Shown: positions 8 through 55,768, counted from the stretch's first letter. The stretch: 64,000 nt of DNA from an uncultured delta proteobacterium (GCA_963731045.1 CAVSVC010000022.1:2113-66112); one strand, 5' to 3'. Numbers and translations: made by a program. Notes: generated by a model from the letters alone, not told the origin.

Positions 8-810
8 AAGCACGAAAGCCAATCTTTCACTCTTACTGGACAAGCCGGCCGGTTCTCCGAAGTCGAGGCCATCGCAGGCAGAATCCAGATCACCACGGAC
101 CTGAAGAAGGCGATCGAGAACGCCCCGATGATCATCGAATCGGTGGCCGAGGATCTGAAGATCAAGCAGGACCTTTTCAAAGAGCTGGACCAGATCTGTC
201 CCCTCGATACGGTTCTGGCAACCAATACGTCCGTCATCAGCATCACGGACATTGCGGCCAAATCGAAGAATAAGGGCAGGATCGTCGGAGCCCATTCTCG
301 GTTTCCACCCTTCCTCATCCCCCTTGTGGAAGTGGTCAAAGGAAATGAGACCTCCGATGAGACCATGGAACTGACCTTCCAGTTCATGAAGAAAGCAGGG
401 AAATACCCGATCAAATGCATGAAGGATGTGCCCGGCTTCGTTGCGAACCGCTTGCAGCATGCTCTCTGGCGGGAGGCGATCTCCATCGTGGAAAACGGTA
501 TTGCAGACGCCGCCACCGTGGACGCGGCCATCAAGAACAGTTTCGGCATCCGGCTCGCCGTCCTCGGCCCCATGGAGAACTCCGACATGGCGGGACTCGA
601 TCTGATCCTGGCCATTCACAATACGGTTCTCAAAGATCCTCGAAGCGTCGCCCAATCCCTCTCCCCTGCTGAAAGAAAAGGTGCAGAAGGGTGGATTGGG
701 TTCTCAAAACGGGTAAAGGCTTTTATCCCCAATGGAGCCGGAGGATATGAAGAGGGTCAGGTCGAGACCTCATGAAGTACCTCATCGATTACTCACGGAA
801 AAGATCCTGA
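8..810 (+). pseudogene. 3-hydroxyacyl-CoA (3-hydroxybutyryl-CoA-type) dehydrogenase. The 5' end is outside the window and the frame is broken near the 3' end.
   Basis: Track ORF 128..775 plus in-frame codons from nt 8 read TTDLKKAIENAPMIIESVAEDLKIKQDLFKELD..NTSVISITDIA..LVEVVKG..GFVANRL. The conserved tail pieces (PLLKEKV / LKTGKGFYPQW / EDMKRVRS / LMKYLIDY) lie in three different frames after about nt 660. The stop is taken at 808-810. TGA at 5-7 is in frame, so another shift lies upstream. Confidence 0.75.
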
Positions 811-857
811 TGGATCTTTGAACGTCAATCATGACGTCAGAAAGGAGAGAAAGAGAA

Positions 858-1801
858 ATGGAAAAATTGATTATCAGTGCAGCAATCACCGGTAATATCA
901 CGCTGCCGGTGCAGACGCCTTATCTGCCTCTGACACCTCAGCAGATCATCGACGACGCGGTCCGCGCCGCCAACGCAGGCGCTGCCTCGGTTCACATCCA
1001 CGGCCGCGACCCAAAGACCGCCAAGCCCACGACCGACCCCGCCGTCTACAAGGAGATCGCCAGCGGCATCAAGGCCCGGAGCAACGTGATCGTTTGTGTG
1101 ACCACCGGCGGGCACGGCGGATATGACACCCGCTCAGCAGAGCCCAGGTTGTTCCGGCCCTGAAACCGGAACTGGCGACGTTCAACATGGGGTCTATCAA
1201 CTTCTCGATTCACCCCATCGTGGACCGTTACAAGGACGAGGATTACAAGTATCCCTGGGAGAAAGATTTCGCCGCAGCCACGAAGGACTTCATCTTCCGG
1301 AACACCTTCGGCGACATCGAGAAGCTGGTTCAGATTATGACGGAGAACAACACCAAGTCGGAGTTCGAGGTCTATGATGTGGGCCACCTTTACAACATCA
1401 ACTTCCTCATCCGAAAGAAGGTGATCGAAGCCCGCCGATCTGGCTGCAAGTTCGTCACCGGGATCCTGGGCGGCATCGGGGCCAACGTAGGACAGAAGTG
1501 GTGCACCTCAAGCAAACTGCTGACAGGCGTTCTTCGGAACGGAGAATTATGTCTGGTCCGTCATCGGGCCGGATACCCGGGCGGAGTTCAATCTTGGAAC
1601 CCTCGCCACGATCATGGGGGGAATGCCCGGGTCGGTATGGAAGACAATATCTTCGTCGAAAAGGGCGTGCTCTGCAAGAGCAACGGCGAACTGGTTGAGA
1701 AGATGGTTCGGATTGCCAAGGAGCTTGGCCGCGAAGTGGCGACCCCCGACGAAGCCAGAAAGATCCTCGGCCTCAAAGGTAAAGAGAACGTCAATTACTG
1801 A
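858..1801 (+). pseudogene. BKACE / DUF849 family beta-keto acid cleavage enzyme (3-keto-5-aminohexanoate cleavage enzyme family), frame interrupted
   Basis: Track ORFs 831..1163 and 1187..1801 are the two halves of one protein. They read MEKLIISAAITGN..LTPQQIIDDAVRAANAGAASVHIHGRDP..VTTGG, then ALKPELATFNMGSINF..EFEVYDVGHLYN..GILGGIGA..RVGMEDNIFV. There are at least two frame changes (about 1120-1185 and about 1440-1610). Confidence 0.8.
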
Positions 1802-12049: not shown

Positions 12050-12082
12050 CGATTGGCAACTCCTTCACTGACCGAGGTACCT

Positions 12083-13204: not shown

Positions 13205-13223
13205 CCTTCGGACGATCCGGATG

Positions 13224-13265
13224 TGTTTCGAGCTTCGAAATTCGAATTTCGGATTTCAGAATTTG
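13224..13265. repeat. Heptamer-periodic degenerate tandem repeat (tttcgag cttcgaa attcgaa tttcgga tttcaga atttgtg)
   Basis: Read directly from the sequence. It sits in the spacer between the two M24 genes. A related ttcgaatttcgaaat occurs at 25124-25140. Confidence 0.55.
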
Positions 13266-13277
13266 TGAGGGGTGACC

Positions 13278-14443: not shown

Positions 14444-14457
14444 AGAAGGAGCCGTCA

Positions 14458-16095: not shown

Positions 16096-16111
16096 AGCCG
16101 GAGGACTGCCG

Positions 16112-16428
16112 ATGGCTGAGGTCGTTACCGCCCTCGTTTTCAGATACGACCCGGACCATGATCGTCAGCCACGGTATCAGGAGTACCGGGTGGACGTTGC
16201 CGAGGAAATGTCCGTCCTGGTTCTCCTGAACAGAATTCAGACTGAGATCGACCCGACCTGAGCTTCAGGAGTTTCTGCTGCGGCCTGCAGATGTGCGGGT
16301 CCTGTCTGGTCAGAATCGATCACAAGAGGAGGTTTGCCTGCCTGACGCTCGTCAAACCCGGGGAGACGGTCACGGTAGAACCACCCACATACCCTGACGG
16401 TCATATCAAGGATCTGGTATCCCAAATG
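16112..16428 (+). pseudogene. Small 2Fe-2S ferredoxin-like subunit (SdhB/FrdB N-terminal domain type), one frameshift; end uncertain
   Basis: GGAGGA precedes ATG 16112. It reads MAEVVTALVFRYDPDHDRQPRYQEYRVDV..LLNRIQTEIDPT, then a 1-nt slip at about 16258, then LSFRSFCCGLQMCGSCLVRIDHKRRFAC. Confidence 0.6.
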
Positions 16429-16446
16429 ACTCTACAAGGAGCAAGA

Positions 16447-17718: not shown

Positions 17719-18295
17719 ATGGCACAAGATCAAAGGAAGAGTGAGAAAATTCGGCGACAATATCGATACCGATACCATTGCACCGGGTCCAAGTCTGTTG
17801 CTCCCCATGGACGAGATGAAGAAACATGCCTTTTCTCCGGTTATTCCGGATTTTTATAAAACCGTGAGCGAGGGGGATATTCTTGTGGCGGGAAACAATT
17901 TCGGCTGCGGGTCGAGTCGGGAGCAGGCCGCCTCCGTGGTCAAAGCCCTGGGATTCCGATATGTCGTATGCGAATCGATGGCCAAGATCTTTCTCCGGAA
18001 CTGCGTCGGCCTCGGTATCTACCCCATCCTCGCAAAGGGCGCCAGCCAAATCTTCGAGGAAGGCGACGATATCGAGATCGATCTCGATCATGGAGAGGTG
18101 AGGAACGTGCGGAGCGGTGAAAGAGCCTCTTTCGAACCGCTGTCCGGTACGCCCCTGGAAGTTCTGGAGTCGGGTGGTATCCTTCAAGTTCTGAAGAAGA
18201 GAATTGAGCAGGAGAAAGAGTCCTCCGGGAAAGGATCAGTGATCAGTAAGCAGAAGGCAGAAAAGGAAAGACAGTTATCAGTGACAGTCCAGTGA
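17719..18295 (+). pseudogene. Aconitase-family dehydratase small subunit (LeuD-like, second copy), N-terminal frameshift; C-terminal tail runs into a heptamer repeat
   Basis: ATG 17719 sits in a TAAATG junction with the upstream stop. The frame then changes into track ORF 17741..18295, which carries FGDNIDTDTI, GNNFGCGSSREQA and IEIDLDHGEVRNV. Confidence 0.8.
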
Positions 18296-18300
18296 TCAGC
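18234..18300. repeat. Heptamer-periodic degenerate tandem repeat (atcagtg atcagta agcagaa ggcagaa aaggaaa gacagtt atcagtg acagtcc agtgatc)
   Basis: Read directly from the sequence. It covers the last ~20 codons and the stop of the LeuD-like gene. Confidence 0.5.
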
Positions 18301-18375
18301 AACCCCTTGTCTGATTCATGACAGAATGCCGGCGCCTGATTGCGGCACCGCAAAAAACAGATGGAGGAGTCCAGT

Positions 18376-19371
18376 ATGAAAATCGATATCTTCACCCATG
18401 TCCTCTTAGAGAAGTTTAAGGAAGGGTTCTACAGGTATGCCGATCGGTTTCCGACCGAGAAGAGGGTCCAGGAGAAACGCCACGTCCTTACGGACAAAGA
18501 GGCGAGGCTTCAGAAGCTTGAGCCCTACGATGATCTGGCTCCAGGTCCTGTCGACGACCATGCCCCCTCTTGAAGAGGTGATGGGCCCCCAGGAGGCGGC
18601 CGATCTGGCGAAGCTCTGCAACGATGAGATGGCCGAGATGGTGGCGGCCAACCCAAAGAGATATATCGCCGCGATCGCCAACCTGCCGCTCAACAACATG
18701 GATAAGGCCCTTAAGGAAGCGGAACGGGCCATAAAAGAGCTGGGCTTCAAGGGGATCCAGATCTACACGCGCCTCAACGGCAGAGCCCCGAGCACGGACG
18801 AACTGATGCCTCTTATACGAACTGATGGTTGGCTTCGATCTGCCGATCTGGATCCATCCCGATGCGGGGTTCGGAACAGCCTGACTATTCTGCTGAGACC
18901 GTTTCACACCATCAGCTTTTCTCTATTTTTGGGTGGCCCTATGATACGACCGCGGCAATGGTGCATCTCGTCTTCGCCGGGATCTTCGAGAAGTTCCCGA
19001 CCATCAAGTTCATCACTCATCACTGCGGGGGTATGGTCCCCTTCTTTGCCGACAGGCTTGTCGTTCACTACAACAACGGCCTCGAACGTCTCGGCGCCAA
19101 GCATTTTCCCGGCCTCACGAAACACCCGGTGGACTATCTCCGCATGTTCTATGCCGATACCGCGCTCAACGGCAATCCGTCCGCCCTCCGCTGCGGACTT
19201 GAATTCTTCGGAGAGGACCATCTCCTCTTCGGCACGGACCTGCCCTTCGATGTGGAAAACGGGGGCGTTTCGATCAGGGATACGATCAAGGCCATCGACG
19301 CGATGGGGGTAGCGGAATCCGTGAGGAAGAAGATTTACGAAGGGAATGCGCGGAGGCTACTGCATCTATAA
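18376..19371 (+). pseudogene. Amidohydrolase-2 (ACMSD-type) family protein, about two frameshifts
   Basis: GGAGGAG precedes ATG 18376. Blocks seen: MKIDIFTHVL, NLPLNNMDKALKEAERAIKELGFKGIQIY, LPIWIHP, FGWPYDTTAAMVHLVFAGIFEKFP..ITHHCGG, and LLFGTDLPFD. Confidence 0.8.
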
Positions 19372-19508
19372 TGCAGAATAGCCTTGTATTCGTGAGCGTA
19401 CCTCCGCATGTTGGGAATTCCATGGTAGAAACAGATACGGCGGGATACCCACCTCTCGGGGGATCCCCCGCTTTCTGCGATATACGTCAGTCTTGCTAGC
19501 CGTGCCGG

Positions 19509-20336
19509 CTAAGCCTTCCAGATGGCGATGTCGCCTACATTGATGTCTTTCTTCGTCACGTCTACCGGACCGAACTTCTGGGCCAGGTACCCGGGCTTTT
19601 CGATCAACAGCGTGTAGACACCGTCTTTGAGACCCCTCAGCCAGAAGTCGCCGTAGCTGTCGCTTACGGCCTGGAACTTCTGCCCGGTCTCGTTGTTCGT
19701 CGCCGTGATGGTGGCCCCTTCGGCACACTCATCCAACTCCTGATCGAGCAGGGCGCCTGCGATGAACTTCTTGGGCAGGCCGATGTAGTATACCCGCGGC
19801 TTCACGTGAGCCAGCGCCGGTTTCAGGGGCTCCGCCTTGGCGATGAGGTCCTTCAGATCCTCTTCTTCGCCGAAGGTGAAGGCGCCGGTGGGACAGGCAT
19901 CGACGCAGCGGGGTTCTTTCCAGCCCTTATCCAGCAGGTGCGCGCAGAACGTGCACTTCTGGGCGATGTTGAGCGCATCATTGAAGTAGATGATGTTCTC
20001 GTACGGGCAGGCCGCGATGCACATCTTGTTGCCGCGACACTTATCGGGGTCGATGATGACGGCCCCATCGTCCCGCTTGTAGATCGCCTTGACATTGCAC
20101 GCCGGTATACAGGGCGCATCGTCACAGTGCTGGCAGATGCTGTGCTCGTAGGTGACCATGACCTTGGGAACCTGGCCGCGGACGTTATCGTAGACCTTGT
20201 TCCAGAACTGTCCGGTGTCGGGCTGCGGCTTCGCGATAGGCGACCAGTCATTGGCCACATGCTCGTCCTTGCAGGCCACCTGGCAGTTGTAGCAGCCGTT
20301 GCAGATGTCGTAGTTGATGATCAGGACCTTACTCAT
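19509..20336 (-). CDS. Fe-S (three to four [4Fe-4S] motifs) beta subunit of a DMSO-reductase-family molybdoenzyme, with a C-terminal CarboxypepD_reg/Ig-like beta-barrel domain. It resembles the pyrogallol-phloroglucinol transhydroxylase small subunit.
   Basis: Intact 275-aa ORF with CNGCYNCQVAC, CQHCDDAPC, CRGNKMCIAACP and CTFCAH..RCVDACP. The C-terminal ~80 aa read TITATNNETGQKF..DSYGDFWLRGLKDGVYTLLIEKPGY. The start overlaps the alpha stop as TAATG. Confidence 0.9.
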   Translation of the reverse strand: MSKVLIINYDICNGCYNCQVACKDEHVANDWSPIAKPQPDTGQFWNKVYDNVRGQVPKVMVTYEHSICQHCDDAPCIPACNVKAIYKRDDGAVIIDPDKCRGNKMCIAACPYENIIYFNDALNIAQKCTFCAHLLDKGWKEPRCVDACPTGAFTFGEEEDLKDLIAKAEPLKPALAHVKPRVYYIGLPKKFIAGALLDQELDECAEGATITATNNETGQKFQAVSDSYGDFWLRGLKDGVYTLLIEKPGYLAQKFGPVDVTKKDINVGDIAIWKA

Positions 20337-22941
20337 TATTCACCTCCCATAAGGCATGCCTCTAAGCCGGGACCCGCACACGGGTGGAACGGGCGCTCGA
20401 AGGCTTCTGGATATTTGCGTTTGAGTGCTTCCATGTCGGTCTTCTCGATCTCCACCAGGAAGCCGCTGACCGCATGGCCCACTGCGTTCTTCGAGGTGGT
20501 GTTGCGCGGCACGATGGTGTTGATGGCACCGCCGCGATCGATCTCCCCGGGAACGATCGGGTCCCACTTCGCGCCGTGATCGATGTAGACCACGCCGGGC
20601 ATGACGCGCTCGGTAATATACGCGCCGCCCAGCACGGTACCGCGATCGTTGATGATCGAGACGATGTCGCCGTGCTTGATGCCGCGCTTCTCGGCCTCGG
20701 TCGGGTGCAGCCACACCGGGTGGTACTGATAGCCATCGGGACCTTTGATCTTGCAGGTTTCGATCTCGCGCAGCCAGGTGATGTCGTCGTGCTGCGAGTG
20801 CACACCCCAGCGCGGATGGTTGGAGCACACGAGCAGCGGATACTTCTTGGAGCGCTCGGTGCCGATGGTCTCCTCGTGGCTGATGCCTTTCGCGATCCAC
20901 TTGGGCACCGGTGGCCGCTCGAGGTCGTCCGGGAAGTGCTTTGTGAGACCGGTGGCCTCGAACTCGAGCTTGCCGGTCGGTGTCGAGAGCGGGTACTTCT
21001 CCGGGTCCTTGTAGAAGTTGTAGAAGCCGGCGGGAACCTCCTCCCAACCATCGGCCGTGGGCACCACAAAGTAGCCCTTCTCGTTGAGCTCCTCCCAGCT
21101 GATGAGGTCGGCGCACCGGGAGGTCTCCCAGCCGTACTTGATCAGCTCGGGGATGGACTTGCCGCCGGTGTACTTCTTCCAACAATCCCAGGCGCTCGGC
21201 GATCTTGCAGACGATCTCGTAGTCGCTGAACGACTCGCCGAGGGGTTCGATGCACTTGTGCTCCGGGAACAGAAGGTTGTACTGGCCGCTGAAGATGTCG
21301 CCGGCAATGTCGTCCTCTTCGAGCTTGGTGTTGACCGGCAGGATGATATCGGCCAGCAGACAGTCGTTCTCCAGCCATGGATGCTGGGCGAACATGAACT
21401 CGATGTCGGGGTGCCGCATCGCGCGGACGTAGTCGTTGCCCGTGTTCCAGCAGGTGATCCACGACGGAGAGTCCGTCCAGACCATGTGGATCTTGGAGCA
21501 GCCGTCCGCCGGGTACTTGTAGTGCACGAACTGATCTTTGCGATCGGCCGTCTCGGACTCGCAGCCCCACCAGTCGCATTGGCCTTCGAGGATGGCCTTG
21601 GGCACATAGGTCTTGGGGATGAACGACGGGTGGTTTGTCTCATCGGGATGGCCGCCGGTGTAGGCCTTGCGCAGGTAGGGCACGCGCAGCGGCTTGGGCT
21701 GGGCGTACTGGTCCGGCTTGTCGAAGAGACCCCACTCGATCATCTTGGCCTGGTTGACGCCGGGCTTGCCCAGTCCCTGCATGGCCAGGCAGATGCACTG
21801 CAGACGGGCCGGCTCGGTCGCGTAGGGGCCGCGGATGCCGGGGCCGCCGTTGCCGATGACCACGGTGGTGCGCTTGCTCGCCCATTCCTTGGCCAGGGCC
21901 TTGATGGTGCGGGCCGGTACGCCGGTGATCGGCGCAGCCCACTCGGGCGTCTTCGCAACGCCGTCCTCTTTACCCATGACATAGGCCTCGTACTTCTCGA
22001 CGCCGACGGCGTGCGTCTTGAGGTACTCCTTGTCGTAGGTGCCGTTCTTGAACCACTGATAGGTGATGGCCAGGTAGAGAGCCGCGTCGGTGTTGGGCAG
22101 CACCGGGATCCACCGGTCGGCGTGCACCGCGGCGGCGTAGTTGAGATCGGGCGAGACGTAGATCTGCTTGATGCCCAGTTCGGTCCACCAGTAGCTGAGG
22201 CGGCTCGGCAGCTGGCCCTGCCAGCCCCACGGCGTGGTTTCCTGATCGCAGCCCCAGAAAAGGAGCAGCTCGGTGTTCTTGGAGATGTCGTAGAGCAGGT
22301 TGCTTTGCATCCCCTGGCCGACCGGCTCGCAGCCCCAGAAGTGCTTGCTTCCCCACCACCAGCCTTCCCAGCTGTCGGGCTGACGGTTCTGCTGCGTGAA
22401 GCCGCCCCACAGGCGGAGCAGCTTGCGGCCGGCGCCGTGGCAGGCCTGCACGACCTTGTTCTCTCCGTGCTGGTCGCTCTGGTAGAGAACAGCCGTAGGA
22501 CCGTACTTCTTCTTGATGCGGTTCATCTCGCCGACGATGATGTCAAGAGCCTGGTCCCAGGAGATGCGCTTATACTTGCTGACGCCGCGGTTCTGCGGGT
22601 TGCGCTCGCCGTTGGGGTCGAAGTCGACACGCATCATGGGGTAGCGGATACGCGCCGGCGAATAGACGCGCTTCTTGTAGGCGATGGAGTACGGCGGAAT
22701 CAGGGTCTTCATGCTGGGCTCGAAGGTCTTGCCCCGCACTTCCATCTTCCAGGGGTTCATATCCTTCTTGGGATCGTACTTCCAATCGTAGTGCATCGGG
22801 CGGATACGGATGATCTTGCCATCCTTGACGTCCACCATCGAGGCGTTGGAACCGTTCTCAGGGACACCGCAGAAGCTGATATCTCTTATCAGCGTCTTTT
22901 CTTCCCCTTTTCCCTTGGTTTACTTTCTTTTTTTCTGCCAT
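20336..22941 (-). pseudogene. Molybdopterin (bis-MGD) oxidoreductase alpha subunit, pyrogallol-phloroglucinol transhydroxylase-like; two frameshifts as assembled
   Basis: GGGGAGG precedes ATG 22941 (MAEKKKVNQGK..), with a slip at about 22895 in an A/G run. Track ORF 20340..22838 is in frame down to ..CKIAERLGLLE. A slip at about 21180 leads into track ORF 20336..21643 (KYTGGKSIPELIKYGWE...VEIEKTDMEAL). Motifs seen: GERNPQNRG, ISWDQALDIIVGEMNRIKKKYGP, PDSWEGWWWG. There is no N-terminal Cys cluster and no RR (Tat) motif. Confidence 0.85.
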
Positions 22942-23162
22942 TTTTTCCTCCCCTCTCTCTAGATTTCGGGAATGTCACAAACAAACAATGACGCAAAGAC
23001 GTTACATCCCTCCTCCTGAAAAGATTCATCTCCTCTATAGCACATTCATTTCATCTCTTGCAAGCAAAAATAATTCAGGAAAGCATCCCTTCAAAATAAG
23101 CCCGCCCTGTTGGATTCCGTACGAGGACGAACCGAGAATGCAGCAGAGGTTGCGTTCGGAAA

Positions 23163-24161
23163 TCAGGCATCCTTGATCTCTAACGCCTTATGGGAAGCAA
23201 ATACGAACCGGTCCAGGCCGATCCATTTGAAGAACCTCGCAACCGGGCCGATGGTCACCAAGCCTCCCGGGGAGAAGATTCCCACCGCTGCCAGAATAAG
23301 TCCAAGGAACGTAAGGTGCAAGGCTTTCACCCAGACCGGAAGCCACCCTGCCGTCCAGAGAATCTCCTCGATCAGCATCATGAAGATTGCACCCACAATA
23401 GGACCCAGAAAGGTCCCTGTTCCCCCCAGCATGACCATCGTGACTGGAAGCAGCGCCTTGTCCGTGCCAAAAACAACTTCCGGATCGATGAAACCTGCGT
23501 ACCAGGCATAGACACCTCCAAGAAGTGCAGGGAACAGGGAACTGAGCACATATGCGCTCATCTTATATCGGGTGACATGAATCCCAAAAGCAGTTGCCAC
23601 TTCTTCATCTTCCCGGATACTGAAGAGGGCAAGACCGAATTTTGACCTGGGGATCCAATAACACACCAAAACGGTGAGCAGTGCGACAGCAAGGAAGATG
23701 TAGTAGGTTTCAAAAGCGCGGTAGCCGGGTTTCAGGGAAATTCCCTGTGTCCCGCCCGTAAAATCCCTGAGACTCCCCGCCACCAACTCGAATAATTTAA
23801 TCAGTCCAAAATTGGCCAGAGCAAAATAGCCCCCCTTAAGCCGTAGGAAAGGATAGCTAATGAGCGAGGAAAAAATCAACGTAATCAGGATGCCGGCGGC
23901 CATGCAGAAGATGAAAGGAACTCCTCTGCTGTAGAGAATCGAAAACCCATAAGCGCTGATTCCGAAAAAAACATAATGCCCTAAGTTGACGTAGCCGAGA
24001 TAGCCCGCTGTAATGTTGAAGCTCGCACCGATCCCGACATACATAAAGAAAAGGAGAAAGAAGACGACCCAATAGGGATCGATAAACCGGGGCATCACCG
24101 CCAAGAAAACAAGAAAAATGATTAAGATCCCCTCCCAGGGGTTCAGGCGTTTCTTAGACAT
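23163..24161 (-). CDS. livM: Branched-chain-amino-acid-type ABC transporter permease (LivM family)
   Basis: Intact 332-aa polytopic ORF with LivM-type blocks (NITAGYLGYVNLGHYVFFGISAY, LFSIREDEEVA). It overlaps the upstream livH end by 8 nt. Confidence 0.9.
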   Translation of the reverse strand: MSKKRLNPWEGILIIFLVFLAVMPRFIDPYWVVFFLLFFMYVGIGASFNITAGYLGYVNLGHYVFFGISAYGFSILYSRGVPFIFCMAAGILITLIFSSLISYPFLRLKGGYFALANFGLIKLFELVAGSLRDFTGGTQGISLKPGYRAFETYYIFLAVALLTVLVCYWIPRSKFGLALFSIREDEEVATAFGIHVTRYKMSAYVLSSLFPALLGGVYAWYAGFIDPEVVFGTDKALLPVTMVMLGGTGTFLGPIVGAIFMMLIEEILWTAGWLPVWVKALHLTFLGLILAAVGIFSPGGLVTIGPVARFFKWIGLDRFVFASHKALEIKDA

Positions 24162-25029
24162 GCTTAAATAATCCTTGCGGTTTCAGGAGCAGGACCAGCA
24201 CAAGGGTGCAGAAGGCCACGGCGAGGGACCAGTGTGCCCCCAGGAAAAAACCTGCAAATGTTTCTGCGACTCCGAGGATGAGTCCGCCCACAAGGGAACC
24301 GATCAGACTCCCGGACCCTCCGAGCATGACGATAGCGATATAACGGATCGTCAATGGCAGGCCGATGAAAGGGCCGATGGTAAAGAGCAGGACGTAAAAA
24401 AGGCCGGCGGTTCCGGCCAGTCCGATCGCAATCCCAAAAACCAACGTGACAATTCGGGGAACATTAATTCCGACCACCATGGCCCCTTCTCGGTTCTGAA
24501 GAATGGCCCGAATTGCTTTTCCGGCAAAAGATTTCTTCAGGTAGAAATGAAGGAAGATCGTGAGGGCGATGATGAGCACCAGAATGGAGAGTCGAAGGGA
24601 TGACACAACCACACCGCCCACATTGAAGGCAGGCATGGAATAGGAGACTCCTTTCACCGTCGGCCCCCAGATAAAGGACGTCGTATCTTCAATCGCTGTT
24701 GCGATGCCTACGGTGACGACAATCGATGAGAAGAGGAGTTGTCTCGGAGGACGATTGAGGATCGGCTTTATGAAGGCCTTCTGGTAAACCGCCCCGATCA
24801 GGATGAAAAGAGGGATGACCATGATGAGAATCAGGAAGGGGTTCAACCCGGTCACGGCAAAAAGGATATAGGTGACCAGTCCCCCCAGCATGAGAAACTC
24901 CCCGTGCGTAATGTTGAGGACGTCAGCGATACAGAAGATCAGGGAGAGCCCGAAGGCGGCAAGGGCATAGGTGCCGCCTTGGAGCACTCCCGCCAAAACC
25001 AATTGGATAAGAACCGTCGGCGTCAGCAT
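24154..25029 (-). CDS. livH: Branched-chain-amino-acid-type ABC transporter permease (LivH family)
   Basis: Intact 291-aa ORF with LQGGTYALAAFGLSLIF..NITHGEFLMLG and RAILQNREGA. Confidence 0.9.
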   Translation of the reverse strand: MLTPTVLIQLVLAGVLQGGTYALAAFGLSLIFCIADVLNITHGEFLMLGGLVTYILFAVTGLNPFLILIMVIPLFILIGAVYQKAFIKPILNRPPRQLLFSSIVVTVGIATAIEDTTSFIWGPTVKGVSYSMPAFNVGGVVVSSLRLSILVLIIALTIFLHFYLKKSFAGKAIRAILQNREGAMVVGINVPRIVTLVFGIAIGLAGTAGLFYVLLFTIGPFIGLPLTIRYIAIVMLGGSGSLIGSLVGGLILGVAETFAGFFLGAHWSLAVAFCTLVLVLLLKPQGLFKHV

Positions 25030-25182
25030 CCGTATTCCTTGATCCGTGAGAGCGTCAAGCGTAAGGCGCGAGGGGTTTACCCCTTACGCCTCACGACTGA
25101 CGCCTTACGGACGAGGGTTTTGATATTCGAATTTCGAAATGTTCCCAACCTCTAAATCATGTGTCGTGATTTCGACACAGCG

Positions 25183-26376
25183 TTAGGGTTGTGGATTCGG
25201 GTAAACATGCTTATGGCTTGCAAACTTCTTTGGAGAAATCAGGTAATACTTCCCATCAATATACTGCGCTGCAAACTGTTTAAAGGATCCATGCCCCAGG
25301 GTCTGGTCGATAACCATGGGCCCCAGGATCGATTCAAAATTGACCGCCCAGGCTGATTTCAGGAGATCTTCGGGTTTCAAAGAGTCGGCTTTTTCAATCG
25401 CCACCTCTGCAAGTTCCAAGGCCACATAATGGATGCCAACATCCAGGTATTGCTCCGTGTCGATATTGGTCTCCTTCAGGATCTCCTGGAACTTCTTCAG
25501 GTTGCCGTAAGGGAGTCCTGGCAGCCAGTGATGTGCGCCCGTCACGTAATTGGCGTCCTTTCCCAGAGCACTGGAGAAAGAAATGTCGAAATGGGTAAAG
25601 TGCCACTCCCGAGGTTTGAGTCCAAATTCTTTGGCCTGTTTTTTGAAAGTGACGCCAAAGGGAGTGAAGGAAGAGACGTAAATAATATCCGGGTCGGCAG
25701 CCTTCAACTTCAAAAGAATGGAGGTGAAGTCCGTCGTGGCTGCCGGAGCAATCTCTTTAAACGCGGTCTTGTAGCCGCGTTTTTCAGCGTTTGGGATTGC
25801 TCCCTCGTAAACCTCTCGGGTATGCGGGGTATCTTCGGCCACATAGCCGATCGTCTTCACTTGTTTCTCCTCATCGAGAAGATCGAAGTAATTGTCTTCC
25901 CAATGGGTGGAAAGCTGCTGTACCCCGACAAACCACTTAAACCCTCGATTGAAGACCGCCGGCGTATTGGCAGTGGCCAACACCATGGGAACATGATACT
26001 TCTCAGGGACAGAGGTCACCGGAAATGTAATCGGTGTTGACTTGGGACCGATCAGGATGTCGCACTTATCGACCGTCACCAGTCGCTCATAGAACTTCAC
26101 CGCCGTTGCCTGATCGCTCTTGTCGTCATAGACGATGGTTCTAACAGGAAGCTTCTTGTTGTAGGCCTTCACATAAAGCCCGCCTTGCTTCTTGTTCACA
26201 TAATTCTCCCAGGCCTTAATCATACGGTCGAAAGGACCAACATCCGCGGCAAATTTTCCAGTGAGGCAGAGTGTCATTCCGACGACGATCTCTTTTTTCT
26301 CCTGAGCCACTCCAGCCTGAATGGTCCCCAGGAAGACGGCCATGGCCAAAATAGCAACCCATCCGATCCTCTTCAT
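25183..26376 (-). CDS. Liv-type (type I periplasmic binding fold) ABC substrate-binding protein
   Basis: AAAGGAGGAG precedes ATG 26376. The signal is MKRIGWVAILAMAVFLGTIQAGVA. The mature part reads EKKEIVVGMTLCLTGKFA... It is a close paralog of 58597..59784. Confidence 0.9.
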   Translation of the reverse strand: MKRIGWVAILAMAVFLGTIQAGVAQEKKEIVVGMTLCLTGKFAADVGPFDRMIKAWENYVNKKQGGLYVKAYNKKLPVRTIVYDDKSDQATAVKFYERLVTVDKCDILIGPKSTPITFPVTSVPEKYHVPMVLATANTPAVFNRGFKWFVGVQQLSTHWEDNYFDLLDEEKQVKTIGYVAEDTPHTREVYEGAIPNAEKRGYKTAFKEIAPAATTDFTSILLKLKAADPDIIYVSSFTPFGVTFKKQAKEFGLKPREWHFTHFDISFSSALGKDANYVTGAHHWLPGLPYGNLKKFQEILKETNIDTEQYLDVGIHYVALELAEVAIEKADSLKPEDLLKSAWAVNFESILGPMVIDQTLGHGSFKQFAAQYIDGKYYLISPKKFASHKHVYPNPQP

Positions 26377-26401
26377 AGATCTCCTCCTTTTCTGATGTGG
26401 G

Positions 26402-27862
26402 TTAGAGCCCGAGGTAAGCCTTCCGGATGCTCTCATCCTTCAGGAGTTCCGCGCTCTTGCCCTCTCTGACAACCCGGCCATTTTCCAGTACGTAGGTACG
26501 GTCCGAGATCTCCATGGCAAGCCGGGCATTCTGCTCCACCAGGAAGACCGTCACTTCCTGCCGATTGATCTTCTGTATCGTACGGAAGAGTTCCGCCACA
26601 ACAAGGGGTGCGAGCCCCATGGAGGGCTCGTCGATCAGCACGAGTTTCGGAATGGACATCAAGCCCCTTCCCACCGTGACCATCTGTTGTTCTCCGCCGC
26701 TCAGCGTTCCCGCGATCTGCAGTTTTCTTTCTCTAAGCCGGGGAAAAAGCTCGAAAACCCACTCGAGCGTTTCCACAATCTTCTGCCTTGCCCTGGGAGC
26801 ATAGGCCCCGAGTTCCAGGTTCTCAAGAACGGTCATCCCGGGAAAAAGCTTCCTCCCCTCCGGAATGAGGGTGACCCCCTTTTCGATGATCCTGTGTGGC
26901 GGCAGCCGATGAATCTGTTCGTTCAGAAACTGAATGGCGCCCGACGTGGGATGAAGCATTCCGGCGATCGTATTGATCATCGTCGTCTTGCCCGACCCGT
27001 TTGATCCGACCATGGTCACCATCTCTTTCGAAGAGATGGCAAGAGAGGTTTCCCAGAGGACCTGAATATCCCCATAATGGGTTGAAATCTTATCCACCTG
27101 GAGCATCATCTCAAGCGACCTGTTTCCCCCCTGGGCTCCCCCTTCGGCTCCGAGGTATGCCTCAATCACATCCTTGTTCTTGGAAACTTCTTCAGGTTTC
27201 CCCTGGGCAATCAGTTCACCGAAGTTGAGCACCAGGATCCGGTCTGAAAGGCCCATGACCGCTTTCATGATGTGCTCAATCATAAACACGGTGATTCCCC
27301 TCTTCTGAATCCTTCGAACCAGACTCATCATCGCTTCTGTTTCTGTCGGGTTAAGTCCGGATATCGCCTCATCGAGCAGAAGCACTTTGGGGCGGGTCGC
27401 CAATGCCCTGGCGATCTCCAGTTGTTTCCTCCCCACCAGAGTGAGGTTCTTAGCGGGAATATTCGCCTTCGGGGAGAGGCCCGTCAATTCCAGCAGATCA
27501 AGGCCTCTTTTTTCAATTTCACGGGCCGTTTCCGCTTTCGGCTTCCCAAAGTGGAGCCCGACAAGGATATTTTCATAGACGGTGAGACTCGAAAAAGGCC
27601 GGACGAGTTGGTAGGTCCTTGAGATCCCTTTATGGCAGATATCCCGGGCGCCTTGAGATGCAATTTCTTCTCCGTTGAATCGGATAGAACCCGATGAGGG
27701 AGGAAATGTTCCCGCGATAATGTTGAAGAGAGTTGTTTTGCCGGCCCCATTGGGTCCGATGAGGCCGAGGATCTCCCCGGACTCCATGGTGAACGAGATG
27801 TCATAAAGCGCCCTGAGGCCGCCGAAGTATCTCGTAACCCCTGTTACTTCAATAATGCTCAT
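26402..27862 (-). CDS. Fused LivG-LivF ABC ATPase (two nucleotide-binding domains in one 486-aa ORF)
   Basis: Domain 1 has GPNGAGKTT and ..LLLDEAISGL and ends EAYLGAEGGAQGGNRSLEM. Domain 2 starts MLQVDKISTHYG and has GSNGSGKTT, LSGGEQQM and LIDEPS. There is no stop or frame change at the junction (about 27100-27130). Confidence 0.85.
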   Translation of the reverse strand: MSIIEVTGVTRYFGGLRALYDISFTMESGEILGLIGPNGAGKTTLFNIIAGTFPPSSGSIRFNGEEIASQGARDICHKGISRTYQLVRPFSSLTVYENILVGLHFGKPKAETAREIEKRGLDLLELTGLSPKANIPAKNLTLVGRKQLEIARALATRPKVLLLDEAISGLNPTETEAMMSLVRRIQKRGITVFMIEHIMKAVMGLSDRILVLNFGELIAQGKPEEVSKNKDVIEAYLGAEGGAQGGNRSLEMMLQVDKISTHYGDIQVLWETSLAISSKEMVTMVGSNGSGKTTMINTIAGMLHPTSGAIQFLNEQIHRLPPHRIIEKGVTLIPEGRKLFPGMTVLENLELGAYAPRARQKIVETLEWVFELFPRLRERKLQIAGTLSGGEQQMVTVGRGLMSIPKLVLIDEPSMGLAPLVVAELFRTIQKINRQEVTVFLVEQNARLAMEISDRTYVLENGRVVREGKSAELLKDESIRKAYLGL

Positions 27863-27956: not shown

Positions 27957-28919
27957 TCAGCGGGTGACCGAAACCCCCGTCAGGGAACAGTATGTCCGGC
28001 TCCGGCGCAGGACGCCGACGATCCCCTGCGGTGACAGCAGCATGATTCCCACGAGAATGGCGCCCTGGATCAGGAAACTGTAACCGGCGTACTTTGCGAG
28101 CAGGAAATAGAGGACGACGACAACCACCGTTCCAAAGATCGGGCCCTCCTCGGTGCGCGTCCCCCCGATGACGGCGGCCAGAAGCAATGTCATGGTCCAC
28201 GTGACATTGAAGGTGGCCGAAGGTTCGATGTATCCCTGGTAGAGGTAGAAGACCGCCCCTGCCAGTCCTGTAATCACCGCAGAGATGACGAAGGTGTACA
28301 GCTTCAACTTGAAGACGTTGATCCCGCAACCGGCCGCCGCTCTCTCATTGTCTCGGATGGCCGCGAGACCCAGCCCCAGATTCGATCTGAGAACAAAACG
28401 GACCAGGAAGACGGACCCGATACCGACGATCAAGGCAAACCAGTAGATATGGGCCATGGAGACCTCCGCGATCCCCTTGATCATATACCCCGCCCCGCCG
28501 CCGTCCATCTCCCCTCCCACAGGCTTCCAGAGATAGAAGAGGATCCTCAGGGCCTCGGGAACGACGAGCGTTCCGATGGCAAAATAGATCCCGCTGAGTC
28601 TGAACACGGGGAAAGAGATCACGAGAGCAAAGAGACCGGCCACGACCGCCCCCGCAAGAAGTCCGATCCACCAGGGGATTCCAACCCATGTGGTAATCGC
28701 CAGGGTATACCCTGCGAGCCCGAGGAAGGCAGGTTGACAGAGCGAGGTCAGCCCTGAATAGCCTGCGAGCAGGTTCCACATATTTGCCATGGCCAGATAG
28801 ATCGAAAAGAGGAAGACGTAGAGCAACCAGCTGCGCGGAGCCCCGATCAATGGAAACAGGACAAGGGCGATGCCGATCACGATCAAAGGCATGAATTTCG
28901 TCTTGAATCGAAATCTCAT
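27957..28919 (-). CDS. livM: ABC transporter permease (LivM family), second system
   Basis: Intact 320-aa polytopic ORF with NLLAGYSGLTSLCQPAFLGLAGY and LAAIRDNERAA. Confidence 0.9.
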   Translation of the reverse strand: MRFRFKTKFMPLIVIGIALVLFPLIGAPRSWLLYVFLFSIYLAMANMWNLLAGYSGLTSLCQPAFLGLAGYTLAITTWVGIPWWIGLLAGAVVAGLFALVISFPVFRLSGIYFAIGTLVVPEALRILFYLWKPVGGEMDGGGAGYMIKGIAEVSMAHIYWFALIVGIGSVFLVRFVLRSNLGLGLAAIRDNERAAAGCGINVFKLKLYTFVISAVITGLAGAVFYLYQGYIEPSATFNVTWTMTLLLAAVIGGTRTEEGPIFGTVVVVVLYFLLAKYAGYSFLIQGAILVGIMLLSPQGIVGVLRRSRTYCSLTGVSVTR

Positions 28920-28926
28920 TGCTCTC

Positions 28927-29790
28927 CTAACGGCCGAAGAGACCTTGCGGCCTGATCGCCAGTATCACCAGGACGATCATATACACGATCAGCATCTGCG
29001 TGGCCGAACCAAAGAAGTATCCTCCCATGGTTTGAACGACCCCCAGTGTCACCCCGCCGATAAAGGTTCCGAGCATACTGCCCAGACCTCCGATGATCAC
29101 GGTTCCAAAGGCGATCGTGAGCAGAGACGTCCCGGACGTGGGGGTAAAGGGAAACGTCATTCCCAGAAAAACCCCCGCGACGGCAGCGGAAACCATCGCA
29201 ATGGCGAAGGCATAGCCATAGATGCGGTTTGTGTTGATTCCCATCAGAAGGGCGGCCCTCCGGTCCTGAGAGGCAGCCATGATGGCTTTTCCAAGATAGG
29301 TCCGGCTGAGAAACTCGCGGAGAAGGATCATGACGACGATGCCGGCAATGAAGTCCAGCAGATAAGAGATCGGAAACTGAAGGCTTCCCAGGCTGAAACT
29401 GGTCAGGGAATAGGATGTGTTTAAACCTCTCGACAGCGGGGTCCACAGGATCTGGTTGGTGTTCTGAATGATCAGGGAAATGCCGAAGGCGATGATCAGC
29501 GGCGCCTCTGCGGAAATGGCAAAGGCACGGCCCATCAGGTACTTCTGGATGATAAACCCCAGGGCAAACATTCCGGGGATGCAGATGACCAGACTGACGA
29601 TGGGATCGAGCCCCGGGTAGGACATCAGGCCGAACGCGGCGTAACTCCCCAGGATCACCAGGTCGCCGTGGGCAAGATTGATCAATCTCATGACCCCGAA
29701 AACAAGGGAGAGACCCATGGCAATGAGCGCGTACAGGCCGCCCAGAAGAATCCCCATGATCAATGGAGTGAGGATGTCGCCTGAACCCAT
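28927..29790 (-). CDS. livH: ABC transporter permease (LivH family), second system
   Basis: Intact 287-aa ORF with LLGGLYALIAMGLSLVFGVMRLINLAHGD and MAASQDRRAA. Confidence 0.9.
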   Translation of the reverse strand: MGSGDILTPLIMGILLGGLYALIAMGLSLVFGVMRLINLAHGDLVILGSYAAFGLMSYPGLDPIVSLVICIPGMFALGFIIQKYLMGRAFAISAEAPLIIAFGISLIIQNTNQILWTPLSRGLNTSYSLTSFSLGSLQFPISYLLDFIAGIVVMILLREFLSRTYLGKAIMAASQDRRAALLMGINTNRIYGYAFAIAMVSAAVAGVFLGMTFPFTPTSGTSLLTIAFGTVIIGGLGSMLGTFIGGVTLGVVQTMGGYFFGSATQMLIVYMIVLVILAIRPQGLFGR

Positions 29791-29842
29791 TTACGCCTTT
29801 CCAGGATGACGGATTAGCATTTTGTTAATTTAATGATTGTTT

Positions 29843-29990
29843 GCAGGCTGCTCAAAAATGCCCAGATGCAAGGCGCCCGAAATCCTGAGGAGTGAGACAC
29901 CTTAAGGTACCTCACGGTACGGTACCTTAAGGTACCGCAGCGACGAAGGATGAGGGCAACGATGCAGATGGACGTTTTTCAGCAGCCTGC
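29843..29990 (+). repeat. About 148-bp nested-palindromic intergenic repeat, copy A (MITE/REP-like)
   Basis: Imperfect terminal inverted repeats: gcaggctgctcaaaaatgcccagatgca ... tgcagatggacgtttttcagcagcctgc. The GGTACCTTAAGGTACC core is itself a palindrome. Copies B (53510-53656, inverted) and C (58062-58209) are near-identical. This copy abuts the livF stop codon. Confidence 0.85.
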
Positions 29991-30709
29991 TACACGCCGA
30001 AGTAGGCCTTTCTCACCTGATCTTCCTCCCGGAGGTCCGAGGAGACGCCGCTCAGAACAACACGCCCGGTTTCAAGGATGTAGGCCCTATCGGCCTCCTG
30101 AAGGGTTCTCCGAACGTTCTGCTCTACAAAGAGGATCGTAATCCCTCTCTCCCGGATTTCCTTCAGCGCCCGAAACAGCTCGTTAATCACGATCGGAGCC
30201 AGGCCGAGAGACATCTCGTCAATGAGCATCATCTTCGGATCGGCCATCAGTCCTCTGCCGATCACGAGCATCTGCTGTTCTCCTCCGCTGAGCGTCTTTG
30301 CGGTCTGTTTCCGCCTCTCTTTCAGGAGCGGGAAGTGTTCGTAGACCTTCTCCAGGTTCTCTTCCTTCTTGCTTCGTGCCTTCCGGTTGTAGGACCCGAT
30401 GATGAGATTGTCCAAAACCGTTACATCCGGGAAGATCCGCCTTCCCTCCGGAATCTGCGTGATCCCGTTTTCCACAATCTCGTAGGGGTCCATCCGGGTA
30501 ATCTCCCGCCCGTCGAATTCAATGGTTCCTTTAGCAGGGTGGAGTAACCCCGAGATCGTATCGAGAAGGGTTGATTTTCCTGAGGTGTTGGCCCCGATCA
30601 GTGCCAGCATCTCCCCTTCCATTACTCGGAGCGATACATCCCAGAGTGCCTGAAAGGTGCCGTGGAAGACATCGATGTGATTCACAAGGAGAATGGGTTG
30701 CTGCGACAT
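29990..30709 (-). CDS. livF: ABC transporter ATPase (LivF family)
   Basis: Intact 239-aa ORF with GANTSGKST, LSGGEQQML and MLIDEMS. Confidence 0.9.
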   Translation of the reverse strand: MSQQPILLVNHIDVFHGTFQALWDVSLRVMEGEMLALIGANTSGKSTLLDTISGLLHPAKGTIEFDGREITRMDPYEIVENGITQIPEGRRIFPDVTVLDNLIIGSYNRKARSKKEENLEKVYEHFPLLKERRKQTAKTLSGGEQQMLVIGRGLMADPKMMLIDEMSLGLAPIVINELFRALKEIRERGITILFVEQNVRRTLQEADRAYILETGRVVLSGVSSDLREEDQVRKAYFGV

Positions 30710-30722
30710 TTTTCCCTATCAC

Positions 30723-31469
30723 TCAGGCCCCGAAGTAGGCATCGATCACCCTGCTGTCATTCATGATGGCCGTCGGCTCGCCTTCGGCGATCTTCATCCC
30801 TTTGTCGATGACGACGATCCGATCGACGGCGTTGACCATCACTTTCATGACGTGTTCGACAAGGATCATGGTGATCCCCATCTTTCTAATCTCTTTGATC
30901 GTCGCAAGGATTCTGGGGATCTCGATCTCAGTAGACCCTGCCGCCACTTCGTCGAGCAGCAGCAACTCGGGTTTTCGTGCAAGGGCTCTTGCGAGTTCGA
31001 GTTTCTTCAGGGATAAGATCGGAAGATTCCCGGCAAGGGTATCCTTCTTCTCGGAGAGATTGACCAGGTCAAAGATCTTTTCGTCTTCCAGGTCAGCCGC
31101 AGTCCTCCTCAATTGTCTCCCGAATACTGCGGAAACCAGCAGATTCTCGCGTACGGAGAGCGTCACAAAGGGCTGCGGGATCTGATAGGTCCTGGCAATG
31201 CCGAGATGGCAGACTTCGTGGACTGCACAGCGTGTGATATTACGTCCTTGAAACGTAACGGTCCCGTTGTCCGGAGTGTACTCACCGGCGATAATGTTGA
31301 GCAGAGTCGTCTTCCCCGCGCCGTTGGGTCCCATCAACCCGATGACTTCGCCGGGATAAACATCAAAACCGACGTTTTTCAACGCCACCAGGCCCCCGAA
31401 GCGTTTCGTAATACCCTTCACGCTCAGAATCGGCTCGCCCATCTTCTCCTTTGAACGTTCAGCACTCAT
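30723..31469 (-). CDS. livG: ABC transporter ATPase (LivG family)
   Basis: Intact 248-aa ORF with GPNGAGKTT, LKKLELARALA and LLLDEVAAG. An alternative start is Met10 at 31442. Confidence 0.9.
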   Translation of the reverse strand: MSAERSKEKMGEPILSVKGITKRFGGLVALKNVGFDVYPGEVIGLMGPNGAGKTTLLNIIAGEYTPDNGTVTFQGRNITRCAVHEVCHLGIARTYQIPQPFVTLSVRENLLVSAVFGRQLRRTAADLEDEKIFDLVNLSEKKDTLAGNLPILSLKKLELARALARKPELLLLDEVAAGSTEIEIPRILATIKEIRKMGITMILVEHVMKVMVNAVDRIVVIDKGMKIAEGEPTAIMNDSRVIDAYFGA

Positions 31470-54811: not shown

Positions 54812-55768
54812 TCAGCCTATCTTCAGAAGTCTTTTTGCATTTCCTCCGAGGATCTTCTCTTTCTCCTCGTCGGGGATACTCATCGCCTTAACGCCCGCCA
54901 GGTTCGACCGGATGAAGTCTTCTCCCGCTTCGGCCCCAAAGGGATAGTCGGATCCGTACATCATCCGGGTCCCCCCGAAAAAGGCATAACCGCACCCATA
55001 GGACCCCAGGGTGCCGTCTGTTGCCGTATCGGCATAGAGGTTCCCCCAGTACTGGGAGATATGCTTCGGGAGCTTATCTTTCAAGAGCCCATTGAAGTTC
55101 TGCTCGATCCGGCGCGCAAAAAAAGGAATCATGGCTCCAAGATGGTGCATGACCACTTTCAGGGTCGGAAAACGATCGAGCACCCCGCCGAAAATGAGCC
55201 TCCATACGGCCTGGGTTGAATCGAAAGGCCACCCGAAGACGTGCATCATCCTCCACCCTTTGTCCATGTCCACCAGGGGATAAGCGTCCCAGTGGGTTGG
55301 GTGCAGCAATACGGGCAGGTCATGCTTCACCAGCTTCTCGAAAAGCGGATAATAATCGGGAGAATCGAGCCCTTTTCCGTTCTGGTTCGTGGAGATGGTG
55401 ATCCCCCGGCAATCCAGCTCATTTATGCACCGGTCGAATTCCTTCATGGCCCCTTTCACGTCCAGGAGTGAGAGGATGCCGATATTGACGAACTTCTTCG
55501 GGTACGCCTTGCACAGGGCGTAATTGTCGTCATTGGACTGTCTGCAGATTTCGGCTGCATCAACAGGCCCGAAGCCAAGGAGAACCGGGGTGGTCTGGGT
55601 GAGGGCCTGGATATCCACGCCGTACTTCTCCATCAGTCCCAGCCGGACTTCAAGATCCGCGTTCTGCGGAGGAAAAGGAAACTGCTTTCCCTGGCCGTAA
55701 TACTCCAGTTTCCCAAGGAACGCCCCTACTCTTCTCGAAATGTGGTGACAGTAGATGTCGATAATCAT
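54812..55768 (-). CDS. Amidohydrolase-2 (ACMSD-type) family protein, intact
   Basis: 318-aa ORF with MIIDIYCHHI, GVDIQALT, PVLLHP, VMHHLGAMIPF and MYGSDYPFG. Confidence 0.85.
   Translation of the reverse strand: MIIDIYCHHISRRVGAFLGKLEYYGQGKQFPFPPQNADLEVRLGLMEKYGVDIQALTQTTPVLLGFGPVDAAEICRQSNDDNYALCKAYPKKFVNIGILSLLDVKGAMKEFDRCINELDCRGITISTNQNGKGLDSPDYYPLFEKLVKHDLPVLLHPTHWDAYPLVDMDKGWRMMHVFGWPFDSTQAVWRLIFGGVLDRFPTLKVVMHHLGAMIPFFARRIEQNFNGLLKDKLPKHISQYWGNLYADTATDGTLGSYGCGYAFFGGTRMMYGSDYPFGAEAGEDFIRSNLAGVKAMSIPDEEKEKILGGNAKRLLKIG

Follow-up and report, generated by a model that had tools for sequence, protein, structure and literature searches.

A 64,000-nucleotide stretch of DNA from an uncultured delta proteobacterium (GCA_963731045.1, CAVSVC010000022.1:2113-66112; analysed at its full length and called the window here) carries on its minus strand, between positions 19509 and 22941, adjacent genes for the catalytic (alpha) and iron-sulfur (Fe-S; beta) subunits of a predicted cytoplasmic heterodimeric molybdenum (or tungsten) enzyme of the pyrogallol-phloroglucinol transhydroxylase family, with a bis(molybdopterin guanine dinucleotide) (bis-MGD) cofactor. 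The alpha gene (20336..22941) contains two single-base insertions, without which it has 867 codons; the beta gene (19509..20336) is intact. Judged from its sequence relationships, the alpha subunit is a member of a separate orthologous group, clade B, which is sister to the orthologues of the characterised transhydroxylase AthLS and is not itself a transhydroxylase orthologue. An earlier sequence-only reading of the same DNA had called the enzyme transhydroxylase-like; the family, the cytoplasmic alpha/beta organisation and the best structural match all stand, but a tree of 147 sequences sets it apart from the AthLS orthologues. We give roughly even odds (about 0.5) to clade B being a redox-coupled phenol hydroxylase or dehydroxylase that would feed the trihydroxybenzene/phloroglucinol route, and the phenol acted on is probably plant-derived.

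Placement of the alpha subunit and its substrate pocket

Chains A and B of PDB entry 4v4c are the best structural matches for alpha and beta, respectively. The repaired alpha aligns with 4v4c_A over nearly its full length (E 2.7e-141), the next entries being dimethyl sulfoxide (DMSO) and trimethylamine N-oxide (TMAO) reductases at about 1e-70 (DMSO reductase, 4e-70), and P0001, a protein 97% identical to alpha, carries the Pfam domains AhtL-like_1st, Molybdopterin and Molydop_binding. The Pfam model PF21423 scores 47 bits against a cut-off of 27. Three blocks that the sequence-only reading had linked to AthL, GERNPQ.RG, ISWD.A.DI..E.NRIK..YGP and PDSWEGW.WG, are all found in alpha and align with the matching blocks of 4v4c chain A; the Ser of PDSWEGW, which is the molybdenum ligand, aligns with AthL Ser175 and DorA Ser147 and is invariant (as S190) in a 37-sequence alignment. 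The repaired N-terminus, MAEKKKVNKGKGEEKTLIRDISFCGVPENG, bears out the claim that alpha has neither a twin-arginine (Tat) motif nor a Cys cluster (no RR, no CxxC). The window enzyme shares with AthL/AthS (PgtL/S) of Pelobacter acidigallici (PDB 4v4c/4v4d/4v4e; EC 1.97.1.2) a cytoplasmic alpha/beta architecture, an alpha without Fe-S domain and without Tat signal, an AhtL-like first domain, the Ser in PDSWEGW together with His144 and Asp174 (AthL numbering throughout), a beta that joins a ferredoxin core to a CarboxypepD_reg-type barrel (275 versus 274 residues), and an association with phloroglucinol-pathway genes.

DMSO, TMAO and BisC reductases are the next-best PDB and NCBIfam matches, and JGI product names such as 'trimethylamine-N-oxide reductase (cytochrome c)' point the same way, toward an S- or N-oxide reductase of the DorA/TorA/BisC type. 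Such an identity is very improbable: no NCBIfam model passed, every score lying far under its family cut-off (bisC_fam 332 versus 1017 bits, dmsA_ynfE 316 versus 778, torA 264 versus 1465), the known enzymes are monomeric or periplasmic and lack an AthS-type beta, and the match to transhydroxylase exceeds theirs by about 70 orders of magnitude. Alpha sits in the transhydroxylase branch, membership of the Psr/Phs or PadB groups is excluded, and it does not cluster with the DMSO/TMAO reductases; clustering with another DMSO-reductase clade (Psr/Phs or PadB), which the sequence-only reading had held up against its own assignment, was not observed.

For the comparison within the family, species-representative genomes supplied 79 loci, and 50%-identity clusters, searched exhaustively, supplied 146 representatives (P0241-P0386); a distance-based neighbour-joining tree was built of 147 full-length alpha subunits. 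The AthL sequence was rebuilt from the HMMER alignment to 4v4c_A, with residues 387-441 filled in separately and checked against the 80%-identical P0122; a search with the N-terminal part of AthL returned only partial or frame-broken relatives of at most 81% identity. The alpha subunits of the fetched loci fall into three groups. Clade A comprises the true AthL orthologues (59-82% identical to AthL), clade B holds the window (81-97% identical to it and 40% to AthL), and clade C is 70-77% identical to the window. Because the window alpha is only 40% identical to AthL and a distinct clade A occurs in the same gene clusters, we do not regard it as an AthLS orthologue.

The clades also differ in the substrate pocket, for which the sequence-only reading had proposed a residue check against the transhydroxylase structure. 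The outcome is divided: clades B and C keep His144, His154 and Asp174-Ser175-Trp176, but Tyr152-Arg153 is replaced, within an ungapped block, by Ala-Cys in the window and clade B and by Gly-Pro in clade C. Clade B uniformly shows the pattern H A C/S/D H D S W. In clade A, 23 of the 25 members retain His144, Tyr152, Arg153, His154, Asp174, Ser175 and Trp176 along with a Tyr at the Tyr404 and Tyr560 columns; the remaining two, L014_0 and P0281, are the most divergent of the clade and depart from this set at positions 153-154 alone, and Tyr152 is invariant throughout. A second departure from AthL concerns the loops that carry Tyr404 and Tyr560, where MAFFT places Leu and Gln in the window; both loops contain indels, with a Tyr close by in each (AYTGG and SGQY), and relative to AthL about 25 and 9 residues are missing and about 12 are inserted upstream.

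These differences bear directly on whether the gene pair could encode a genuine pyrogallol-phloroglucinol transhydroxylase, that is, a redox-neutral enzyme converting pyrogallol to phloroglucinol with 1,2,3,5-tetrahydroxybenzene as co-substrate. The closest solved structure for both subunits, the retention of Ser175, His144 and Asp174, the phloroglucinol-pathway-like genes within the window (98-1801) and beside clade B elsewhere, and the naming of Chloroflexi genes in the relevant passages of two metagenome reports (PMC3971608, PMC4959651) would all be compatible with this function. We nevertheless consider it quite unlikely, given that the clade-A (AthL-like) paralogue in the same clusters already covers it, that identity to AthL is so low, that Tyr152 and Arg153 are replaced and two pocket loops have another length, and that beta has a fourth cluster site missing in AthS and in all clade-A beta subunits.

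Clade B also evolves more slowly than clade A. Between Dehalococcoidales and Actinomycetes, in the same genome pairs, clade-B alpha subunits are 81-85% identical and clade-A ones 58-59%; the corresponding nonsynonymous divergence (dN) is 0.10-0.13 versus 0.37, a roughly threefold lower rate of change in clade B. As these pairs span different phyla and their synonymous sites are saturated or nearly so, the conservation of clade B reflects purifying selection and not recent transfer. The group is the most conserved of the paralogous groups and is very widespread: it occurs in Chloroflexota, Actinomycetota (Thermoleophilia, Gaiellales), Acidobacteriota, Desulfobacterota and gut Oscillospiraceae (Flavonifractor, Ruthenibacterium), with more than 120 distinct 90%-identity clusters at 84% or higher identity and 201 matches in species-representative genomes. 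A tblastn search against plasmids found only homologues of at most 35% identity. Public names are generic or wrong ('TMAO reductase', 'selenocysteine-containing dehydrogenase'), and those of the cluster members are generic as well. At the DNA level, the alpha-beta segment (19400-23050) is 93% identical to three orthologous loci (L001, L003 and L004); the alignable flanks are 75-79% identical to L001, and the flanks are 64-73% identical to the other fetched loci.

Several loci, among them L013, L060, L070 and L071, carry up to three or four alpha paralogues (A, B and C) in tandem. One contig labelled as a Nitrososphaerales archaeon (L081, DATJAJ010000068.1) holds clade-A and clade-C alpha genes, and either faulty binning or gene transfer to Archaea could account for this. 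Many of the more distant family members (among P0247-P0281, and P0162) have an N-terminal extension of about 100-130 residues before the AhtL-like first domain, which in P0162 looks like a separate domain.

The beta subunit, conserved neighbours and the proposed reaction

The alpha stop codon overlaps the beta start codon (TAATG), and the 275-residue beta matches the Pfam families Fer4_11 and CarboxypepD_reg. It aligns over residues 5-253 (or 6-257) with the 274-residue chain B of 4v4c (E 3.1e-43, ahead of PsrB at 3.5e-31), and its C-terminus is a CarboxypepD_reg beta-barrel, the small subunit of the transhydroxylase family being recognised by a ferredoxin core joined to a seven-stranded barrel of this type, so that the earlier description of a three-domain, transhydroxylase-like beta with ferredoxin-type Cys motifs and a barrel is upheld in full. 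Beyond this description, beta matches a PsrB-type four-cluster ferredoxin in 15 of its 16 Cys, arranged as three full four-Cys sets plus Cys80, Cys100 and Cys106; the only one missing is the second of the third motif, where Asn103 stands instead (C100-R-G-N103-K-M-C106-I-A-A-C110-P). In the PsrB alignment, Cys80, Cys100 and Cys106 fall in group II and group III positions of the four-cluster ferredoxin. AthS, unlike the window beta, has Gly, Ala and Leu at these three positions, consistent with its three clusters. Across 52 alpha-beta pairs, the three extra Cys follow the alpha clades, being present in 30 of 31 clade-B and all 6 clade-C beta subunits and in none of the 13 from clade A.

In clade-B beta subunits, the fourth site reads C-x2-N/H/Q-x2-C-x3-C-P and is completed by the last Cys of the second motif. 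In NarH and related subunits, the distal [3Fe-4S] cluster is marked by C-x2-X-x2-C-x3-C-P together with the final Cys of the motif before it, and the fourth beta cluster is, from this pattern, probably a [3Fe-4S] cluster. NarH- and EbdB-type beta subunits share the signature with its non-Cys second position, but they are much larger, lack the C-terminal barrel, partner Asp-ligated alpha subunits that bear FS0, and deliver electrons to a haem b subunit, whereas the window locus encodes no such subunit. The beta subunits of clades B and C are predicted to hold a complete four-cluster wire to the far end of the subunit, a wire that is truncated in transhydroxylase.

To describe the gene neighbourhoods, open reading frames (ORFs) of all loci were clustered and representatives were checked with Pfam. 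A recurrent order emerged: a block of BKACE, cupin, short-chain dehydrogenase/reductase (SDR), 3-hydroxyacyl-CoA dehydrogenase and 'cyclase' genes, followed by alphaA-betaA, an IclR regulator, alphaB-betaB, a Liv-type binding protein and LivGFHM. This supercluster is complete in L046 (Actinomycetota), lacks some members in L048, L051, L053 and L070, and is rearranged in Dehalococcoidia (L015-L017); in L073, clade C takes the place of clade B. The anaerobic phloroglucinol pathway of Clostridium scatologenes consists of phloroglucinol reductase, dihydrophloroglucinol cyclohydrolase, hydroxy-oxo-hexanoate dehydrogenase and triacetate acetoacetate-lyase (PMC10470551), and the four enzyme families of the supercluster are exactly those of this pathway. 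Of the clade-B loci, 25 span at least 20 kb; a binding protein occurs in 15 of these, IclR in 12, clade A in 10 and two or more phloroglucinol-pathway genes in 7, counts that are lower bounds as the ORF caller misses genes in high-GC loci.

The window holds part of this setting. As the sequence-only reading had stated, two ABC importers lie directly upstream of alpha on the same strand, both recognised with Pfam. The first (23163..27862, minus strand) consists of a LivM-like gene (23163-24161), a LivH-like gene (24154-25029), a binding protein (25183-26436) and a fused LivG/LivF ATPase (26402-27862), and the second (27957..31469, minus strand; LivM, LivH, LivF and LivG) has no binding-protein gene of its own. 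The earlier remark on the importers gains strength from the conservation of a Liv-type binding protein and ABC transporter beside clade B in many genomes. The binding protein at 25183-26436 has weak PDB matches that include 3sg0, 3tx6, 4jb0, 3ukj and 3uk0 (E 1e-9 to 4e-12), entries that we take to be aromatic-acid-binding proteins. At 98..1801 on the plus strand, a 3-hydroxyacyl-CoA-dehydrogenase-like gene, cut by the window start, and a frame-broken BKACE gene (858-1801) correspond by homology to HOHD-like and TAL-like neighbours of clade B elsewhere, and are candidates for the phloroglucinol pathway. Farther away, an Amidohydro_2 gene (54812..55768, minus strand) of the hydroxybenzoate-decarboxylase-type family is the orthologue of a recurrent neighbour, being 75% identical to a copy beside alphaB-betaB in L005, a neighbour cluster that also includes copies in L003, L014 and L072.

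In the reaction that we propose for clade B, a phenolic hydroxyl would bind the metal, as in transhydroxylase, but would be exchanged with water instead of with a co-substrate phenol, and an external partner would supply or accept two electrons by way of the four clusters. Such an enzyme would be a net hydroxylase, like the resorcinol hydroxylase RhLS and the 3,5-dihydroxybenzoate hydroxylase DbhLS of this family, or else a reductive dehydroxylase; it would act on a hydroxylated aromatic that has been imported, and what it makes would go into the trihydroxybenzene/phloroglucinol route. Supporting this proposal are a Ser-ligated bis-MGD site with the His/Asp pair of transhydroxylase, a pocket altered at two securely aligned positions and in two remodelled loops, the fourth cluster site of beta, and the linkage of clade B to the true transhydroxylase, the phloroglucinol pathway, a regulator and an importer. 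If it were a new catalytic type within the family, clade B might, for instance, make or consume 1,2,3,5-tetrahydroxybenzene, the transhydroxylase co-substrate of unexplained origin; another possibility would be the hydroxylation or dehydroxylation of a polyphenol or phenolic acid that has been imported.

Net hydroxylases do exist in the family, RhL having been grouped with PgtL (PMC10100899) and rehLS having been described (PMC10084136). RhLS (RehLS) of Aromatoleum anaerobium and DbhLS of Thauera aromatica AR-1, which we liken to clade B by their description, belong to the same Ser-ligated RhL/PgtL branch (PMC10100899). Both are two-subunit enzymes of nitrate-reducing Betaproteobacteria that carry out net, water-dependent phenol hydroxylation, DbhLS acting on a phenolic acid that is then decarboxylated. 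Both are membrane-associated.

A redox-neutral transhydroxylase with other substrates, for instance one performing a single step among the sequential hydroxyl transfers from hydroxyhydroquinone to phloroglucinol seen in Pelobacter massiliensis, or a transfer on gallate or another carboxylated phenol followed by decarboxylation, would account for a shared catalytic core with a different pocket. The tandem arrangement with AthLS and clade C in several loci would suit a set of isoenzymes, and both the Amidohydro_2 decarboxylase-type genes nearby (in the window, L005, L014 and L072) and the PDB matches of the neighbouring binding proteins, which include entries that we take to be hydroxybenzoate-binding, are in keeping with it. 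The distal Fe-S site, however, tracks clades B and C and is absent in clade A, a distribution that would be difficult to account for in an enzyme that releases no electrons, and Arg153, a candidate partner for an anionic group, is lost and not gained; on balance, we see this alternative as rather unlikely.

Several observations weigh against a redox-coupled hydroxylase or dehydroxylase. The tree was computed without bootstrap, and the catalytic roles of His144, Tyr152, Arg153, Asp174, Tyr404 and Tyr560 are assumed here to be those of the 2004 structure of Messerschmidt et al. An AlphaFold2 model of alpha from a 37-sequence alignment reached a mean pLDDT of 56.5 and a pTM of 0.54, too poor for a fold search or pocket mapping. 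The 64-kb window contains no clade-A (AthL orthologue) gene and no IclR gene, and its ABC genes lie upstream of alpha and not downstream as in the recurrent cluster. Moreover, a promoter-like element, TTGCAA-18 nt-TATAGA at 23034-23063 (minus strand), about 100 nt upstream of the alpha start and conserved in L001 and L003, means that co-transcription with the upstream ABC genes is not required, alpha and beta possibly having their own transcript with a leader of about 100 nt. A promoter and terminator scan of 19200-23300 gave nothing above shuffled expectation and did not call this element, and an Rfam scan of the whole window, which would cover a Moco riboswitch in the leader, gave no match. 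No gene for an obvious electron partner is conserved beside the clade-B pair, and transhydroxylase itself carries three clusters without a known role, so that a fourth site is no proof of net redox chemistry. Finally, literature searches returned no paper that characterises a clade-B member, notes its extra Fe-S site or gives residue-level descriptions. The further proposal that clade B is a new catalytic type, an Fe-S-wired net-redox phenol hydroxylase or dehydroxylase, is more tentative, and we regard it as possible but doubtful.

Integrity of the alpha gene and the rest of the window

In the assembled DNA, alpha appears as two overlapping minus-strand ORFs in different frames, of 832 (20340..22838) and 435 (20336..21643) residues, each protein-like over only part of its length and jointly forming one alpha chain. 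A third, short frame begins at the ATG at 22941, which a GGAGG precedes by five bases. We located the frame breaks by DNA alignment to the three orthologous loci of about 93% nucleotide identity, which differ from the window in length at exactly two places inside alpha, and these alignments confirm the earlier estimate of about 867 codons after two repairs. The first break is an extra base in AAACC, within a variable Lys/Gly-rich N-terminal stretch; alignment and stop codons place it best at 22917..22919, and stop codons in two frames confine it to 22861-22919. The second is one extra G at 21180 (TTGTTG[G]AAGAAG), a base missing in all three orthologous DNAs: these read TTGTTGAAGGAG/A at the site, giving LLKE where the repaired window gives LLKK, and L001, L003 and L004 all read TTGTTGAAGGA over the region. 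Of the two intervals that had been suggested for re-sequencing, 21150-21200 contains the second break, while 22880-22910 lies within the permitted range of the first and probably just misses the site.

Once repaired, alpha is a single ORF that begins at the ATG at 22941 and is 97% identical to intact 867-residue proteins of public metagenomes. Programmed frameshifting is ruled out, as the three orthologous DNAs lack the extra bases and hundreds of intact homologues of 865-874 residues exist. The concern that the frameshifts are genuine and the gene dead has in its favour the two breaks in alpha. The adjoining 7 kb (12000-19400), moreover, is a run of genes every one of which is broken several times, as would be expected if the 12-23 kb region were decaying. 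Even so, a dead gene is unlikely. Both lesions are single inserted bases, with no in-frame stop and no further lesion; substitutions relative to L001, the nearest orthologue, number 24/8/129 at codon positions 1/2/3, with a dN/dS of 0.056. With L003 and L004 used to polarise the changes, nonsynonymous and synonymous substitutions number 7 and 31 on the window lineage and 7 and 65 on the L001 lineage, a comparable pattern that is far from neutral. The beta gene is intact, and at least eight window genes are frame-broken in like manner, including some outside the region, the BKACE gene at 858-1801 and an Amidohydro_2 gene at 3007-3841 (minus strand), showing that indels are not limited to 12-23 kb. 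Public long-read-assembly proteins of the same family (P0121, P0122 and P0139) carry out-of-frame tails of a similar kind. The two frame breaks are most likely assembly errors, and the gene is therefore probably functional in the organism.

On the plus strand, the segment 12000-19400 encodes an M24 peptidase, an FAD_binding_2 protein, large and small subunits of the aconitase family and an Amidohydro_2 protein, all split over several frames, as well as a probable second M24 peptidase seen in frame translations only. Consecutive segments of a Pfam profile fall in different frames, and breakage is far denser than elsewhere in the window, pointing to a segment that is either poorly assembled or decaying.

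Elsewhere in the window, a GrdB-type selenoprotein gene (34189-35487, minus strand) has a TGA in frame at 34444-34446 (VILTST*GTSTRCGA), and the frame stays open for about 85 codons beyond it; this TGA is the expected selenocysteine codon and not a lesion, and genes for glycine/sarcosine/betaine reductase components (32511-33992 and 36024-36977) adjoin it. Four Amidohydro_2 paralogues are present (3007-3841, 18340-19368, 53746-54783 and 54812-55768), members of a family that includes non-oxidative hydroxybenzoate decarboxylases. The window further encodes an aldehyde:ferredoxin oxidoreductase (56149-58032), TRAP and Tct transporters and three Liv-type binding proteins, and as a whole resembles a broad island for the catabolism of organic and aromatic acids.

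A widely cited gene family reconsidered

Gut actinobacterial catechol dehydroxylases (Dadh, Cldh and Hcdh) are likewise bis-MGD enzymes that change ring hydroxylation under anoxic conditions and take electrons via Fe-S subunits, but belong to another clade, which has acetylene hydratase as its closest neighbour and lies apart from transhydroxylase (PMC7028382). In subsurface Chloroflexi, 'pyrogallol hydroxytransferase' genes have been reported since 2013 as evidence of pyrogallol fermentation, with two operons in RBG-2 and RBG-1351 and three copies in DEH-C11 (PMC3971608, PMC4959651); the passages of these papers that deal with the genes do not tell paralogous groups apart. Our comparison places at least three such groups under the label, and the window gene is one more member of a large, already sequenced subfamily.

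Placement at the family level is unsurprising; the distinction between paralogues, by contrast, changes the reading of widely cited genes and defines a testable target, since intact orthologues such as the 867-residue P0001 make clade B directly accessible to experiment. Genes named 'pyrogallol hydroxytransferase', in Dehalococcoidia and others, have long appeared in metagenome papers as if they had a single function. If clade B carries out net hydroxylation or dehydroxylation, reconstructions of pathways in which it stands as a transhydroxylase would be wrong, and a common reaction of anaerobic phenol degradation would still have to be identified. Carbon storage in peat and sediments, the subject of the 'enzyme latch' debate, and polyphenol metabolism in the gut both depend centrally on the anoxic degradation of phenols that derive from tannins and flavonoids. 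Should clade B prove to be a new catalytic type, its conservation of about 80-97% across the taxa named above would make it a major unrecognised step of anoxic polyphenol turnover in soils, sediments and guts.

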